This document shows positions 59,458 through 64,000 of a DNA stretch of 64,000 bases, piece after piece. Position 1 is the first letter of the stretch, and each line of letters begins with the position of its first letter. The position numbers were made by a program, and so were the translations under genes. Source of the DNA: Minisyncoccia bacterium (GTDB lineage Bacteria; Patescibacteriota; Minisyncoccia; Phycocordibacterales; UBA918); the NCBI GenBank assembly GCA_041736805.1, contig JBGSSW010000008.1, positions 2,897 through 66,896 of the forward strand. Direction: 5' to 3'. A model generated the notes under the pieces. The model made no database searches and was not told the origin of the DNA. It saw only the letters and a list, made by a program, of their open reading frames with translations.

Positions 59458-60651
59458 ATGGCAGATACATTTGATCGTTCAAAGCCACACGTTAACGTAG
59501 GAACTATTGGTCACGTAGACCATGGTAAGACTACTTTGACAGCCGCAATTCTTACAGTACTAAACCAAAAAGGAGGTGGTTATAGTGCAACAACTAAGGG
59601 AGTAGACGAAATTGACAAGGCTCCTGAAGAAAAAGCACGAGGTATTACTATTTCTCTCTCACACTCTGAGTACGAAACTCCAAACCGACACTACGCACAC
59701 ATCGATGCGCCAGGTCACGCGGACTATATCAAAAACATGATTACTGGTGCTGCTCAAATGGACGGAGCTGTACTTGTCGTGGCTGCTACCGACGGAGCGA
59801 TGCCACAAACTCGTGAGCACGTTCTTCTTGCTAAACAAGTAGGTGTACCAAATATTATCGTATTTCTTAATAAGTGCGATATGGTCGACGACGAGGAAAT
59901 GATTATGTTGGTAGAAGAAGAACTACGAGAACTTCTAACTAAGAACGGTTTTGATGGTGCTAACGCTCCAGTTATCAAAGGTTCTGGACTTAAGGCTCTT
60001 GAAAATCCTACTTCAGAGTGGGGAGATAAGATTATCGAACTTGCTAACGCAATGGATACTTTCTTCCCAACTCCAGTTCGAGATCTAGACAAGCCTTTCC
60101 TAATGCCGATTGAGGACATCTTCTCGATTGAAGGACGAGGGACTGTTGTAACTGGTCGTGTCGAACGAGGAGCGGTAAAGGTGGGTGAGGAAGTTGAAAT
60201 TGTTGGTATTAAAAACACAGCTCTGACAACAGTGACTGGAGTGGAAATGTTCAACAAGCAACTAGATCGAGCTCAAGCTGGAGACAACGCTGGTATCTTG
60301 CTTCGCGGGACAAAGAAAGAAGATGTACACCGAGGACAAGTGCTAGCTAAGAAGGGTTCAGTTACTCCACATACAGAATTTGAGGCCGAAGTATACGTAC
60401 TTTCAAAGGAAGAAGGAGGTCGTCACACGCCATTCTTCTCTGGTTACAAGCCACAGTTTTATGTTCGAACCACAGACGTTACAGGAGATGTAACATTAAA
60501 TGAAGGAGTAGAAATGATTATGCCTGGCGATACTGCTACTTTCAAAGTTAAGCTAGTAGCCCCAGTAGCTATGGAAGAACAAACTAACTTCGCTATTCGT
60601 GAAGGGGGTAAGACAGTTGGTGCTGGTGTTGTAACAAAGATTGTTGCTTAA
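59458..60651 (+). CDS. tuf: translation elongation factor Tu
   Basis: [21 protein letters not shown]; 397 aa. Confidence 0.97.
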
Positions 60652-60679
60652 CAATTATTCGATTACTAAATTACACACT

Positions 60680-61075
60680 ATGGCCACTGATACTACAAAA
60701 AAAACTACTAAAGCCAAGGAAGTTAAAGCCAAAGAGCCAAAGGTGAAGGAAGCTAAGAATGCTGCTGAGATTAATAAACTTCGTATTCGAGTTCGTGCCT
60801 ACGAGCACAAAATTCTTGACGCGAGTATCAAGCAAATAATTGACACAGCTCTACGTTTCGACGCTAAGGTGGTTGGCCCAATTCCACTTCCAACTGAGAT
60901 TAAGAAATATACTGTTAATCGTTCTTCATTCGTGTATAAAGATGCGCGAGAACAATTTGAGATGCGAACACACAAGCGAGTAGTAGATATTCTAAATCCC
61001 AGTCCAAAAGTGGTAGAGGCTCTAACTAACCTCTCACTTCCTTCTGGAGTCAATATTGATGTAAAGATGATGTAG
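60680..61075 (+). CDS. rpsJ: 30S ribosomal protein S10 with a Lys/Ala-rich N-terminal extension of about 30 aa
   Basis: KLRIRVRAYEHKILDASIKQIIDTA...KDAREQFEMRTHKRVVDI. The ATG at 60680 is preferred over the in-frame upstream start that overlaps tuf. Confidence 0.85.
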   Translation: MATDTTKKTTKAKEVKAKEPKVKEAKNAAEINKLRIRVRAYEHKILDASIKQIIDTALRFDAKVVGPIPLPTEIKKYTVNRSSFVYKDAREQFEMRTHKRVVDILNPSPKVVEALTNLSLPSGVNIDVKMM

Positions 61076-61257: not shown

Positions 61258-62394
61258 ATGGAAGCAACAAATTATAGCTATCCTGGCCCTGAACCAGTTG
61301 AACAAGAATCACATAAGTCGTTTAAGATTTACATAATTATTGGGAGCATTGTTCTAGCATTGTTTTTGCTTTGGTCAGCTGGTTATTTGGACAAAAAGGA
61401 GCATCAGCCTATTACTTACGAAGAAGTACTTCAGGTAAGTAACGATAATCTTGACCCGGTTCCTTTGCAAAACTATTTTGTTGAGCAAGTAGCTGCAGGT
61501 GTTAATGATGATAAGACCAGGTCAGCCATCTATTGGATTACACACCGTTACTTCGATAATGGAGGAAATATTTACGAAATATCCGATTTCATAGAAGCTC
61601 ATCCTGAGATTAGTTTTCTTAAGGAGGCTGAGCTGATTTACCCTGAACAATTTCAAAAGATAAGAGAAAAAAAGGTTCCTAAAACATATAGTTTCGATTC
61701 ACTATATGCCATGCTGGCATACTATGAGGTAATTGATAAAAATAATTATGGGGACATTGCTATATGGGGTTTGGCAGCGAATAAGTATGCTGAGTTAACT
61801 CTGTGGAGTATTCCTGAAGATGAAACTAAAATAGATGAAGAATATCTCAAGTCATATCGACAACTACGTTCACGTTCAGAATACTTTATCGAAAGAATTA
61901 ATAACTTCATAAACAAAAATACTCAGGAGACAAATACTCTAGCCGATTTAAACAACCTAAAAACCGTTCCTACCGACGATCTTTTAGTTGGTCTAAATCA
62001 GTATGCAAGTGCATTACTTATCTTAAAAGGAACGGGGAATGAGGCAAGGAGTAACTTTTCACCATTTCAAATTTTTGAATTTAATTCAGAATATGCCAAA
62101 GCTAATGTCCCAAGACTTTATCTTTTTACCAACTATCTTTTTGCTACCTCACTTGCTTATAGTGGGAATACTTCTAAAGCGGAGGTCGCTATACCCCTTG
62201 ATAGGGTAGTAGCTTATGTCCGTGAAAATCAAAACCAAGGCCCGGCTACTATCAACAGAATTTTATCGTCTAAAGTTAATACTGAAAGAGGGGTATTTGA
62301 TTATGATGTAACCCAAATCTTGGCTGCGGCTCATCCAGGCTTTAAAGGATGGTTATTAGATAGCGGCTGGACTGAAGCGGACTTCCAAAAGTAA
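61258..62394 (+). CDS. hypothetical membrane-anchored protein
   Basis: N-terminal TM (IYIIIGSIVLALFLLW), 378 aa. tataaaat lies immediately before the ATG. Confidence 0.4.
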   Translation: MEATNYSYPGPEPVEQESHKSFKIYIIIGSIVLALFLLWSAGYLDKKEHQPITYEEVLQVSNDNLDPVPLQNYFVEQVAAGVNDDKTRSAIYWITHRYFDNGGNIYEISDFIEAHPEISFLKEAELIYPEQFQKIREKKVPKTYSFDSLYAMLAYYEVIDKNNYGDIAIWGLAANKYAELTLWSIPEDETKIDEEYLKSYRQLRSRSEYFIERINNFINKNTQETNTLADLNNLKTVPTDDLLVGLNQYASALLILKGTGNEARSNFSPFQIFEFNSEYAKANVPRLYLFTNYLFATSLAYSGNTSKAEVAIPLDRVVAYVRENQNQGPATINRILSSKVNTERGVFDYDVTQILAAAHPGFKGWLLDSGWTEADFQK

Positions 62395-62499: not shown

Positions 62500-63249
62500 A
62501 TGGTAAAAAAAATTAATAAAAAGATAATCTTTCGTTTTTCGCTAATATTTTCTAGTTTTCTAGCTCTCTTTGTTAGTTCTACAAAAAATAACGACGGATT
62601 AATTAAAGGTTTAGAAGATTCTGTTAAGTCAGTTAGTTCAGTATTGTCTTTGGACAAAGTCTATGCAGAGGACGGTTGTGGTGATTGTTGTGGTAGTGGT
62701 TGTGACGGTTCTTATAACTATACTTTTCCAACCCCTTCTTCGTCTGGAATTGGTTTACGATTTGTTGATGTGAGCCAAGCACCTCCTCCAAGAAGAAGCT
62801 CAGGATGCTTTATTGCTGGCACCAAGGTTACTTTGGCAGCAGGAGATTTAAAAAATATCGAAAGCATTGATATTGGTGAAGATTTATCTGGGGCTAACGA
62901 TTCATCTAATAAGGTAGAAAAATTGCACGTTATACCGTACAGTGGCGACGTCTATGCTTTTAATGGCAGTGGCCATTATTTCTTCACCCCTTCGCATCCG
63001 TTCATGACAACTAATGGCTGGAAGTCTATTGATCCTCAAATGAGTAAAGAAGAAAACCCTAGTTTAGAAGTTTCAGTACTAAATGTTGGAGATATATTAA
63101 TTAAACAAGGCGATAAAAAAGAGGAAGTTGTTTCGCTTGAAAAAATTACCATGGAAACCACTGTTTATAATTTTAAAGTTAGTGGAGATAGCAGCTACCA
63201 CGCCGATGGTTATCTTGTTCATAATGCCCCCACAAAGAGAATACCCTAA
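62500..63249 (+). CDS. secreted Hint-domain protein (Hedgehog/bacterial intein-like architecture: signal peptide, Cys-rich N-domain, then C-terminal Hint domain)
   Basis: Hint block A G|CFIAGTKV at residue 103 (nt 62806), block B FFTPSHPF (TxxH), and terminal block VYNFKVSGDSSYHADGYLVHN. No +1 nucleophile follows: HN-APTKRIP-stop. Confidence 0.6.
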   Translation: MVKKINKKIIFRFSLIFSSFLALFVSSTKNNDGLIKGLEDSVKSVSSVLSLDKVYAEDGCGDCCGSGCDGSYNYTFPTPSSSGIGLRFVDVSQAPPPRRSSGCFIAGTKVTLAAGDLKNIESIDIGEDLSGANDSSNKVEKLHVIPYSGDVYAFNGSGHYFFTPSHPFMTTNGWKSIDPQMSKEENPSLEVSVLNVGDILIKQGDKKEEVVSLEKITMETTVYNFKVSGDSSYHADGYLVHNAPTKRIP

Positions 63250-63344: not shown

Positions 63345-64000
63345 ATGAGACAACTCAATAAAATAAATTTTCTGGGCTTTTTTATACTAATCTTTATGAT
63401 GCCGTACTTTGGTCAAGCCTATACTATTAAAGCCGGCCAAGCAGTGGGCCTTAATTTTATAAGTCAAAATGTTCTAACCTGCCAAGCAAAAAATGATTAC
63501 TATTACCCTGCTTGGGGTGGTAATAATCTCTGGACCAATACAGCTAATAGAAATGGCCAAATTACTATTGGATTAGGCCAACTCAGTGTACCGGGCAATT
63601 CCACTTTTTGGTATCAATGTCAGGATGACGATGCTCCGTTTGCTTGGTTAGTAAGTTGGGCTAACTTGACCGTTTTACCAAAAGATACTTTTCTAGGCAC
63701 AAGTAGTTGTAATGCTCCTCAAAATGACCAAGCTACCTTAAATTGGTTCAATGTCCAATATGCTGATTCTTATGCTGTTTTAATTACTCAGCCACCTAGT
63801 GGTTGCCCTGTTGGTTGGTCACCAAACGGTGGAGGGGAGTGTATTATTTACCATCCTGCTGATTTGGGTGTGTCTAGCTCAATTACCTTTCCTACGCAGA
63901 CATTGTTCAATTATTCTTGGCGTGTAGCAGCTCGTACTAGTGGTTTGCAGGGGGATTACTCCACTCCGGGAACGGTTTTTAGTTGTATTGCACCTAATGT
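63345..64000 (+). CDS. secreted hypothetical protein (5' partial, runs off window end)
   Basis: Signal peptide MRQLNKINFLGFFILIFMMPYFGQA. tataat at 63332-63337 lies before the ATG. Confidence 0.4.
   Translation, partial: MRQLNKINFLGFFILIFMMPYFGQAYTIKAGQAVGLNFISQNVLTCQAKNDYYYPAWGGNNLWTNTANRNGQITIGLGQLSVPGNSTFWYQCQDDDAPFAWLVSWANLTVLPKDTFLGTSSCNAPQNDQATLNWFNVQYADSYAVLITQPPSGCPVGWSPNGGGECIIYHPADLGVSSSITFPTQTLFNYSWRVAARTSGLQGDYSTPGTVFSCIAPN

Follow-up and report, generated by a model that had tools for sequence, protein, structure and literature searches.

The gene at 62500-63249 of the window (the whole 64,000-nucleotide stretch of DNA analysed here) encodes a precursor-like peptide fused to a C-terminal Hint domain with the Hint fold and the conserved catalytic residues of a type A bacterial intein-like (BIL) domain. 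The peptide also exists in Hint-less versions and, fused or not, lies in an invariant gene neighbourhood that includes a SagD-like YcaO and a SagB-type dehydrogenase. Our preferred explanation, held with about even confidence, is that the protein is a thiazole/oxazole-type precursor of this Patescibacterial YcaO/SagB cluster carrying an optional, self-removing type A BIL "follower". Each chemical step described below, like the sequence of events, the means of export and the biological function, is what we infer under that explanation.

The reading frame is real and conserved. It ends in a TAA stop, its 249-residue translation is exactly that of the original prediction, including DGCGDCCGSGCDGS at residues 58-71, and 64 homologs were found at E ≤ 1e-3. 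The gene sequence is identical in the NCBI assembly and in an independent Logan assembly, so the concern that a sequencing or frame error had merged it with a downstream domain was set aside. The next gene begins 95 bp downstream of the stop. Scanning for promoters and terminators around the gene gave a result no better than that for shuffled sequences.

Table 1. Features of the precursor-like gene and its neighbours in the window
Feature	Coordinates	Strand	Remarks
"unk380", conserved cluster member	61258..62394	+	N-terminal TM helix 20-46; all-alpha repeat or toroid-like domain
Precursor-like peptide fused to type A BIL/Hint domain	62500..63249	+	Whole gene, 249 aa plus stop
Residues 1-28, signal-peptide-like or membrane-anchor-like leader part	62500..62583	+	Lys-rich n-region MVKKINKK, then ~20 hydrophobic residues
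Residues 47-56, SVLSLDKVYA, end-of-leader motif	62638..62667	+	Family consensus PLxSIEKAYA
Residues 57-71, EDGCGDCCGSGCDGS, Cys/Ser/Gly-rich candidate core for YcaO/SagB heterocyclisation	62668..62712	+	From alignment
Residues 72-102, conserved (Y/F)P.P.SSG(V/I).(I/L).F segment, then variable linker to Gly102	62713..62805	+	Predicted disordered
Residues 103-242, Hint (type A BIL-like) autoprocessing domain	62806..63225	+	AF2, Foldseek, profile, dN/dS
Cys103 (codon tgc), Hint residue 1, predicted thioester-forming nucleophile	62806..62808	+	SSG|CFIAGTKV; scissile bond Gly102-Cys103
T163-H166, TPSH, intein block B (TxxH)	62986..62997	+	H166 invariant
H241-N242, intein block G His-Asn, predicted Asn cyclisation site	63220..63225	+	Invariant; within YLVHN 238-242
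C-terminal tail APTKRIP, +1 Ala, Lys at +4	63226..63246	+	7 residues
Secreted protein of ~228 aa, conserved cluster member	63345..64000	+	Signal peptide; mature N-terminus YTIK...; runs off window end

Residues 103-242 are modelled as a Hint fold, and none of the catalytic residues of a type A BIL domain is missing. The 18 full-length relatives compared (41-51% identity) all keep C103, F104, H166-P-F-M-T, V240, H241 and N242, and nearly all keep T163 (at least 90% of sequences) and D236. Purifying selection on the Hint part is strong (dN/dS of 0.07 for P0005 versus P0010). The AF2 model of residues 103-246 has pLDDT values of 75-96, and Foldseek matched it to 64 PDB entries at E ≤ 1e-3, the best 50 of which are inteins, BILs, Vint or Hedgehog domains. 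The top matches were Tetrahymena BIL2 (E 5e-11, TM 0.78), the gp41-1 and DnaB mini-inteins, and the C. thermocellum BIL 2LWY (E 4e-7). A family profile run against the PDB reached the same two solved BILs (BIL2, E 4.8e-10; 2LWY, E 1e-6). In the profile check suggested with the original prediction, the curated libraries stayed below cutoff: Pfam-A and NCBIfam gave no above-threshold family for this protein or for its two in-window neighbours. The sub-threshold Hint-clan matches, with bits against gathering cutoff, were Hom_end_hint (E 5.9e-5; 23.6/32.1), Vint (E 1.2e-3; 19.1/27), Intein_splicing (E 3.8e-3; 17.5/35.8) and Hint PF01079 (E 0.053; 13.5/29.7); TIGR01443, for the intein C-terminal region, scored 15.2 against a cutoff of 15.6.

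The domain carries the traits by which type A BILs are defined (PMC4031507), namely an N-terminal Cys nucleophile, the block B TxxH, a C-terminal His-Asn and no Cys, Ser or Thr at +1 (Ala here, Val in most relatives). Like the type A BILs described previously (Amitai et al. 2003; Dassa et al. 2004; 2LWY), it is a mini Hint of about 140 residues (140 aa here) that lacks a homing endonuclease and is embedded in a variable, secreted-type protein; rather than interrupting a conserved host protein, it has varying flanks and is present or absent among close relatives. Unlike them, it is placed at the extreme C-terminus and leaves a C-extein of only 7 residues; the N-extein is a peptide that resembles a precursor and is linked genetically to YcaO and SagB; and no curated Pfam or NCBIfam Hint model recognises the domain above threshold. 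The original prediction of a complete Hint domain starting at G102|C103, C-terminal to a Cys-rich module, therefore stands; from its residues the domain is complete and apparently active, and an N-S acyl shift giving a thioester at Cys103 would be the expected reaction. The accompanying statement that Ala at +1 makes splicing impossible was too strong, because type A BILs that lack a +1 nucleophile do undergo some splicing, in low yield, through aminolysis once the Asn has cyclised (PMC4031507).

The best match in both sequence and fold is BIL2 of the Tetrahymena thermophila BUBL protein (PDB 6Y75/6TMM), which shares the Gly-Gly|Cys-Phe junction, lacks a canonical +1 nucleophile and carries a small N-extein as a C-terminal thioester, as is predicted here. 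BIL2 has been shown experimentally to ligate its N-extein to lysine through an isopeptide bond (PMC8616854). It differs in being eukaryotic and in lying between ubiquitin-like domains, whereas the window protein has no acceptor domain. The layout had been called Hedgehog-like. Indeed, the order cargo-Gly|Cys-Phe-Hint, the C-terminal Hint and the predicted release of cargo through a thioester are shared with Hedgehog/Hog (1AT0), but by modelling the domain is nearer to BILs and mini-inteins: Foldseek matches it to 1AT0 much less well (E 1.3e-4, 11% identity). Unlike Hedgehog, the family keeps the terminal His-Asn; only APTKRIP follows the Hint domain, a sterol-recognition region is absent, and a sterol adduct would not be expected. 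A Hedgehog homolog was accordingly rejected. Nor is the layout unusual in a small-genome bacterium, as had been supposed, since the Hint family is frequent in secreted proteins of Patescibacteria, Bdellovibrionota and Alphaproteobacteria (at least 80 loci).

The N-terminal 102 residues belong, as judged by profile comparison, to an uncurated family whose members are usually stand-alone peptides of about 85 aa. Searching 1.84 billion representatives with a profile of residues 1-102 returned 35 proteins. Approximately 29 of these are peptides of 71-138 aa (typically 84-86 aa) with no Hint domain, four bear one, and two are long repeat proteins. Family traits are a signal-like N-terminus, a conserved ...SIEKAYA, a GDCCGSSCD stretch and a short beta-like end. 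The Hint-less peptides share the leader, the GDC-Cys/Ser/Gly stretch and the beta-like end with the window module, and terminate at the (Y/F)P.P.SSG(V/I).(I/L).F segment; the Hint-less P0066 and the N-module of the Hint-bearing P0009 share 80% identity, and complete Hint-less ORFs occupy the same position at L084 and L094/L095. As most members of the family are Hint-less, any contribution of the Hint domain is non-essential. The "cargo" of the original prediction is thus normally a Hint-less, precursor-like peptide clustered with YcaO and SagB, a context that the prediction did not include.

Leader residues N6, K7, K8, F11, S14 and S18 are invariant in the family alignment, residues 8-28 are hydrophobic (mean Kyte-Doolittle value of 1.9) and AF2 models a helix at residues 7-25. 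The hydrophobic N-terminus that had been predicted is therefore present, although about 30 residues, including the conserved motif, separate it from the Cys-rich segment. In all 44 family members, the end-of-leader motif has A or G at -1 and A, V, T or S at -3, which fits a candidate leader cleavage site. However, about 25 residues separate the A-x-A site (VYA56) from the end of the hydrophobic run, an atypical spacing for signal peptidase I and for the Sec-type cleavage proposed to give a mature peptide of about 45 aa. In the 44-sequence alignment, the conserved leader is followed by a Cys/Ser/Thr-rich core, as in precursors of thiazole/oxazole-modified microcins (TOMMs): the 16 residues after the A-x-A motif are 67% Cys, Ser, Thr or Gly, with means of 2.8 Cys, 3.3 Ser/Thr and 4.6 Gly. 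Within the candidate core, Cys63 never varies, and G61, D62 and G65 hardly do. At 249 aa, the window protein exceeds the length of under about 100 aa usual for such precursors because of the Hint fusion. Residues 26-102 are predicted by AF2 to be disordered, so the predicted structure lends the N-module no support.

At every locus long enough to be assessed, the peptide lies in one conserved Patescibacterial cluster, whether Hint-fused (L001, which is the window extended, L002/4, L003, L006, L085 and L087) or Hint-less (L010, L090/91 and L094). The other cluster genes encode the SagD-like YcaO, the SagB-type dehydrogenase, a PRTase plus beta-propeller protein, an AMMECR1 fusion, a membrane-anchored helical protein and a secreted protein. 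At L001, YcaO (window-equivalent 64125-65654) begins about 125 bp past the window end and is followed by SagB (65669-66394). YcaO matches PF02624 with 93.5 bits, its best NCBIfam model being the SagD-type TIGR03604 (117.5 bits, below the cutoff of 219), and among solved proteins it is closest to the cyanobactin heterocyclases MusD, TruD and LynD. The first ~125 residues of YcaO fall outside any assigned domain. SagB scores 126.9 bits with TIGR03605 (cutoff 78.4). YcaO and SagB adjoin the peptide gene at L001 and likewise at 9 independent loci; together with the same five other genes they flank it in an order that is shuffled between loci. The cluster peptides are 37-80% identical, and no other conserved small ORF was found in these clusters. 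By comparison, approximately 70 loci that share only the Hint domain are without the cluster. The two in-window neighbours (61258-62394 and 63345 onward), originally noted as membrane or secreted proteins, are both members of this cluster. The cluster of seven genes, present in >100 Patescibacterial lineages, is undescribed in curated family libraries and in the searchable literature.

According to the preferred explanation, residues 1-56 would act as a leader, comprising the signal-like hydrophobic segment and the ...S-I/L-E/D-K-x-x-A motif, and residues ~57-71 (EDGCGDCCGSGCDGS) as the core. In the cytoplasm, Cys and Ser residues of this core would be converted to azol(in)es by the products of two neighbouring genes, the SagD-like YcaO cyclodehydratase and the SagB-type FMN dehydrogenase. 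The folded Hint domain would then catalyse an N-S acyl shift at Gly102-Cys103, and hydrolysis of the resulting thioester, or its capture by a nucleophile, would free the peptide, so that the Hint domain would serve as a single-turnover, self-removing follower. Succinimide formation at His241-Asn242 could also clip the 7-residue tail. Export would proceed via the N-terminal segment, with probable trimming after the A-x-A-type site VYA56|E57. The product may be an azole peptide that an episymbiont carries on its surface or directs at its host, and that the Hint domain may trim or ligate.

The proposed system resembles TOMM/linear azol(in)e systems (streptolysin S, SagA-SagBCD; microcin B17) in that a SagD-like YcaO and a SagB-type dehydrogenase adjoin a small gene with a conserved leader and a Cys/Ser/Gly-rich stretch (for example GDCCCSSCD, CCGSSGCSGC). 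It differs in its leader, part of which is hydrophobic and signal-like, and in having four unrelated conserved genes (for the PRTase-propeller, the AMMECR1 fusion, the helical protein with a TM segment and the secreted protein); no SagC/E1-like partner, CaaX-type protease or ABC exporter was found in the cluster, and no precedent for the C-terminal Hint fusion was found in the literature. Specifically, literature searches on YcaO/RiPP with Hint or intein, AMMECR1 with YcaO, and Hint in Patescibacteria yielded no description of this arrangement. A signal- or anchor-like N-terminus fits poorly with cytoplasmic, ATP- and FMN-dependent modifying enzymes, and this counts against the scheme, as do the failure to detect an E1-like, Ocin-ThiF or RRE partner in the cluster, the below-cutoff TIGR03604 score of YcaO, the predominance of Hint-less family members, the four other conserved cluster proteins that lie outside it and the fact that the azole chemistry is one that we infer.

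It is also conceivable, if somewhat unlikely, that the protein is an ordinary secreted or membrane-anchored type A BIL protein, in essence the original view, in which the Hint domain autoprocesses a small surface protein while YcaO and SagB act elsewhere or are only co-regulated. The signal-like N-terminus agrees with this, as does the fact that numerous larger secreted proteins of Patescibacteria, with no YcaO gene close by, end in the same Hint-plus-tail module. Those larger proteins share the GDC motif, which could thus be a structural, disulfide or metal-binding motif, and Pfam/NCBIfam models detected no E1-like, Ocin-ThiF or RRE partner ("C protein") in any cluster protein. However, the peptide is the only conserved small ORF beside YcaO and SagB, persists there through shuffled gene orders and considerable divergence, and has the build typical of a precursor; moreover, a variant cluster (L009) has a 73-aa peptide that ends in a pure CCGSSGCSGCGSSSE core. 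Even less probable is a PT-HINT cassette, a canonical intein, or a decaying or mis-assembled gene, which we consider very remote as a group despite faint PF07591 (PT-HINT) matches in some homologs and the near-cutoff TIGR01443 score. PT-HINT is likewise a BIL-type Hint of secreted bacterial proteins, but sits between a trafficking/filament region and a C-terminal toxin, whereas here the stop comes 7 codons after the His-Asn, with no toxin domain, and the next gene encodes a separate secreted protein. A canonical class 1 intein was rejected on the +1 Ala, the 7-residue C-extein and the lack of an interrupted host protein; a decaying domain on the purifying selection in the Hint part; and a frameshift artefact on the agreement of the two assemblies.

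A further reading, which we regard as unlikely, keeps the thioester but gives it another use, with Gly102 ligated to an amine or the peptide cyclised instead of simply being released. Candidate acceptors are the Lys of the protein's own tail (+4, APTK), a component of the cell envelope or a molecule on the surface of the host cell. BIL2, the nearest solved relative, has the same GG|CF junction and transfers its N-extein to a lysine epsilon-amine; within the family the junction reads (G)GGG|CF, and both N- and C-terminal catalytic residues are kept despite the tiny tail. Lysines recur in the C-exteins, many of which end in ...VHNK immediately before the stop, with Lys at +4 in several groups, and type A BILs without a +1 nucleophile can ligate (PMC4031507). 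On the other side, the acceptors are candidates only, Hint-less relatives manage without any thioester, and cleavage products predominate in the type A BILs studied (PMC4031507). The tails of the window protein and of P0002 (5 residues) are degenerate, APTKRIP being a shortened form of the 17-18-residue tails of relatives (V-x-x-x-x-I-E-x-x-E-x-A...K). In a more elaborate form, which we think rather improbable, the built-in intein-like domain would perform "expressed protein ligation" on a YcaO/SagB-modified peptide, passing the Gly thioester to an envelope or host-cell amine or cyclising the peptide. The Hint-less forms would then supply the free peptide, and the IEKAYA-type motif, which recurs at the leader end and in Hint tails, would form a sorting/ligation logic with the C-extein lysines.

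In ribosomally made natural products, leader and follower removal normally depends on separate proteases. If the preferred explanation is true, a precursor with its own single-turnover Hint domain would mature by a new logic and would naturally supply peptide thioesters, reagents that chemists make artificially with inteins. Patescibacteria are ultra-small, have minimal genomes and live attached to other microbes; retention of the cluster in such reduced genomes makes it likely to be important for their surface biology or their dealings with the host. The cluster offers testable candidates in the peptide, YcaO, SagB and four further proteins.

The remaining cluster proteins gave few leads. PADLOC returned no defence-system match for them except weak PRTase matches, and the C-terminal half of the AMMECR1 fusion had only sub-threshold alpha/alpha-toroid matches (TED, SQHop cyclase, prenyltransferase). 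"unk380" has >100 unannotated homologs. A metagenome scan using a degenerate pattern from the N-terminal alignment found at least one locus. Aligning the N-terminal family with the analogous 447-aa protein of L009 using hhalign matched only the last 23 residues. Finally, a neighbour-joining tree of Hint domains suggests that the domain was gained repeatedly, but it was calculated without support values and is given no weight here.

The open reading frame at 62500-63249 (+) was confirmed to encode the expected 249-residue protein, in which all of the features named in the original prediction were located. An NCBI assembly (on a 127-kb contig) and a Logan assembly made independently of it carry the same sequence. 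The Logan contig, L001, comprised the window sequence from 61072 onward plus 5.2 kb past the window end. The GC content was 41% for the window and 37% for the Hint gene.

All matches of the protein to the Pfam and NCBIfam Hint-clan models fell below cutoff. In total, 64 homologs were found, including 18 full-length sequences at 41-51% identity. These showed no variation at C103, F104, H166 with the following PFMT, V240, H241 and N242, and almost none at T163 and D236. Among solved structures, the profile of these 18 best matched bacterial intein-like (BIL) domains, namely BIL2 of Tetrahymena BUBL (E = 4.8e-10) and, from C. thermocellum, 2LWY (1e-6), with inteins ranking after them (~5e-5). The AlphaFold2 model was confident for residues 103-246, and Foldseek matched it to BIL2 (E = 5e-11, TM 0.78), to the gp41-1 and DnaB mini-inteins and 2LWY, and far more weakly to Hedgehog 1AT0 (1.3e-4). 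The homolog conservation, profile match and structural match together settle the Hint identity, and the domain is closer to BIL domains and mini-inteins than to Hedgehog. The hallmarks of type A BILs are Cys1 as the nucleophile, His-Asn at the C-terminus and the absence of a +1 nucleophile (PMC4031507). All three features are present here, and residues 103-242 are a Hint superfamily member with the sequence and fold of a type A BIL; Hedgehog-type, canonical intein and PT-HINT elements do not fit. The domain is under strong purifying selection (dN/dS = 0.07 between homologs P0005 and P0010) and had a lower pN than the N-module in all four pairs compared, so decay can be discounted. Three homologs, P0004, P0021 and P0045, each carry two tandem Hint domains of this family.

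When 1.84 billion representatives were screened in HMMER with a profile covering residues 1-102, 35 proteins were retrieved: about 29 short peptides (71-138 residues, typically 84-86), four with Hint and two long repeat proteins. Common to the short peptides are MIKKINKK with ~20 hydrophobic residues after it, the conserved motif ...P(L/I)xSIEKAYA, a stretch rich in Cys, Ser and Gly that surrounds an invariant Cys (GDCCGSSCD, GGCCCSSCD, GDCSCGCGCD and similar) and a (Y/W)P.P.SSGV.I.F segment, after which they end. The SIEKAYA-type motif ended with A/G at -1 and A/V/T/S at -3 in 44 of 44 sequences, and the next 16 residues were 67% Cys, Ser, Thr or Gly. An NCBIfam search found no curated family for this peptide. 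Judged by sequence, the "cargo" of the original prediction is a member of a precursor-like peptide family that usually lacks Hint.

Five more genes are found on L001 beyond the end of the window: the remainder of the secreted protein starting at 63345, a YcaO, a SagB-family dehydrogenase, a PRTase-propeller protein and an AMMECR1 fusion. This neighbourhood was out of reach of the original prediction, which had recognized two secreted or membrane neighbours. The PRTase-propeller and AMMECR1 fusion genes together occupy window-equivalent positions of about 66405-69249; both have unusual architectures, conserved in the cluster, with no known link to YcaO chemistry. In the window, genes for EF-Tu (59458-60651) and ribosomal protein S10 (60641-61075) directly adjoin the cluster upstream. 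The same seven genes, in shuffled order and orientation, surround every full-length homolog on long-enough contigs (L002/L004 from a Paceibacteria MAG, L003, L006, L085 and L087), with consistent fragments at L007, L088 and L089. Among the loci listed, the cluster was absent from the ~70 that have the Hint domain alone in common. Linkage of the precursor-like peptide to the SagD-like YcaO and the SagB dehydrogenase is invariant, and neither enzyme has a signal or TM segment. Among solved structures, the YcaO is closest to MusD, TruD and LynD, cyanobactin heterocyclases that form azolines. Its C-terminus in L001, ...LPHFFP, is reminiscent of the Pro-rich PxPxP end of YcaOs that form azolines, a resemblance that serves as a lead only. 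The TM helical protein (61258-62394) has >100 unannotated homologs, labelled, where labels are present, Paceibacterota and Moraniibacteriota; its AlphaFold2 model (pLDDT 92) gave only non-specific TPR or toroid matches.

Features of the protein and of the associated clusters
Feature	Location	Size	Description
N-terminus	residues 8-28 hydrophobic		begins MVKKINKK; mean Kyte-Doolittle 1.9
Leader-end motif site	62638-62667 (+)
Cys-rich stretch	residues 57-71		EDGCGDCCGSGCDGS
Hint start junction	Cys103, nt 62806-62808 (+)		SSG-CFIAGTKV
TPSH	residues 163-166
YLVHN	residues 238-242
C-terminal tail			APTKRIP
YcaO	L001	509 aa	PF02624, 93.5 bits; best NCBIfam model TIGR03604 (SagD-type TOMM cyclodehydratase), below cutoff
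SagB-family peptide dehydrogenase	L001	241 aa	TIGR03605, 126.9 bits (cutoff 78.4)
PRTase-like plus PQQ/BamB-type beta-propeller protein	L001:5334-7049	571 aa
AMMECR1 fusion	L001; L002:6781-8670	~630 aa	C-terminal half: faint alpha/alpha-toroid matches only (TED, SQHop cyclase, prenyltransferase)
Peptide ORF, variant cluster	L009:8135-8356 (minus)	73 aa	hydrophobic N-terminus, VEKAFA, pure Cys/Gly/Ser core CCGSSGCSGCGSSSE-stop
Separate Hint protein, variant cluster	L009:9359-10468	369 aa	next gene; tail VDMGFLFEKAYAALK

Hint-less peptides occupy the identical cluster slot: P0067 (L090/L091, full cluster), P0066 (L094/L095), P0069 (L084) and a 93-aa ORF in L010. These clusters contain no other conserved small ORF. 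Since P0066 shares 80% identity with the N-module of the Hint-bearing P0009, Hint has been gained or lost between close relatives with cluster content unchanged. The type A BIL-like Hint is thus intact and fused behind a precursor-like peptide, yet dispensable. A rough neighbor-joining tree of the Hint domains of P0001-P0068, calculated without support values, placed precursor-fused Hints in five groups interspersed with Hints of larger Patescibacterial secreted proteins, which hints at repeated capture of the domain as opposed to one ancestral fusion.

On the basis of chemistry established for these families, we infer a pathway in which cytoplasmic YcaO and SagB would convert Cys/Ser of residues 57-71 to azol(in)es. 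The Hint domain would undergo an N-S acyl shift at Gly102-Cys103, and hydrolysis or capture of the Gly102 thioester would detach it as a self-removing follower, with tail release via Asn242. Export would be directed by the N-terminal segment, with trimming at an A-x-A-type site. We give this composite an even chance. Against it, the cluster yielded no E1-like or RRE partner, the YcaO scores below the TIGR03604 cutoff, a Sec-like leader is topologically at odds with cytoplasmic modification, the A-x-A site lies unusually far (~25 residues) past the hydrophobic run, and the GDC motif also occurs in larger Hint proteins unlinked to YcaO.

These last proteins would suit an ordinary secreted BIL protein with irrelevant YcaO neighbours, a reading that the strict synteny and precursor-like architecture make unlikely. 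Productive ligation through the thioester seems slightly more doubtful still. BIL2 attaches its N-extein to the epsilon-amine of a lysine (PMC8616854); it is the closest solved relative and has the same GG-CF junction (GGGG-CF in this family). A C-extein lysine also recurs: it is the +4 residue of the window protein (APTK) and of several groups, and many distant relatives end ...VHNK-stop, a pattern reminiscent of Lys-directed ligation by BIL2. The Hint ORF ends concerned are those of L013, L018, L021, L023, L025, L038, L041, L054, L056, L057, L059, L063, L064, L067-L069, L071 and L075. Such single-lysine C-exteins occurred in Bdellovibrionota, Chloroflexia and Alphaproteobacteria, and other tails were Cys-rich (KEICNQQYSCGEN...) or Gly/Asp-rich (KGGGDGGG...). 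A PT-HINT toxin, canonical intein or artefact is highly improbable, as the architecture contradicts all three.

With its B and D enzymes and the style of its precursor, the cluster resembles TOMM/linear azole peptide systems. It differs in lacking a C protein, protease and transporter, in its four unrelated conserved genes, in its hydrophobic leader and, in the window lineage, in fusing the precursor to Hint. Our literature search, of incomplete coverage so that prior description is possible, found no YcaO/RiPP precursor combined with a Hint or intein-like domain and no link between Hint domains and Patescibacteria. The combination would come as a surprise to specialists in inteins and in RiPPs and lends itself to direct testing, but every chemical step is inferred.

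The (I/F)-E-(K/R)-(A/V)-x-A motif that closes the leader recurs 6-12 residues past VHN in Patescibacterial Hint protein tails. Counted as [IFLV][EQD][KRTHG][AVTS]xA (IEKAYA-like, from the leader ends of 44 peptides), it was present in 17 of 33 V/A-type tails (P0003-P0036) against 0.2 expected by shuffling, and may be a site for recognition or cleavage that both ends have in common.

A variant YcaO cluster, L009:3859-10468, occurs in a Saccharibacteria-labelled MAG. Its genes include one like SagB and one for a 447-aa TM-plus-helical protein, as well as a YcaO that ends in PTPHPFP. Next to this YcaO lies the 73-aa ORF, whose predicted peptide has the design logic of the precursor-like family. 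At L010:5474-6687, the Hint-less 93-aa precursor copy is directly followed by a transposase-like ORF (minus strand), possibly reflecting IS-mediated truncation. A second Hint protein of 404 aa, without the GDC core, lies just past the AMMECR1 gene of that cluster (L010:8797-10011).
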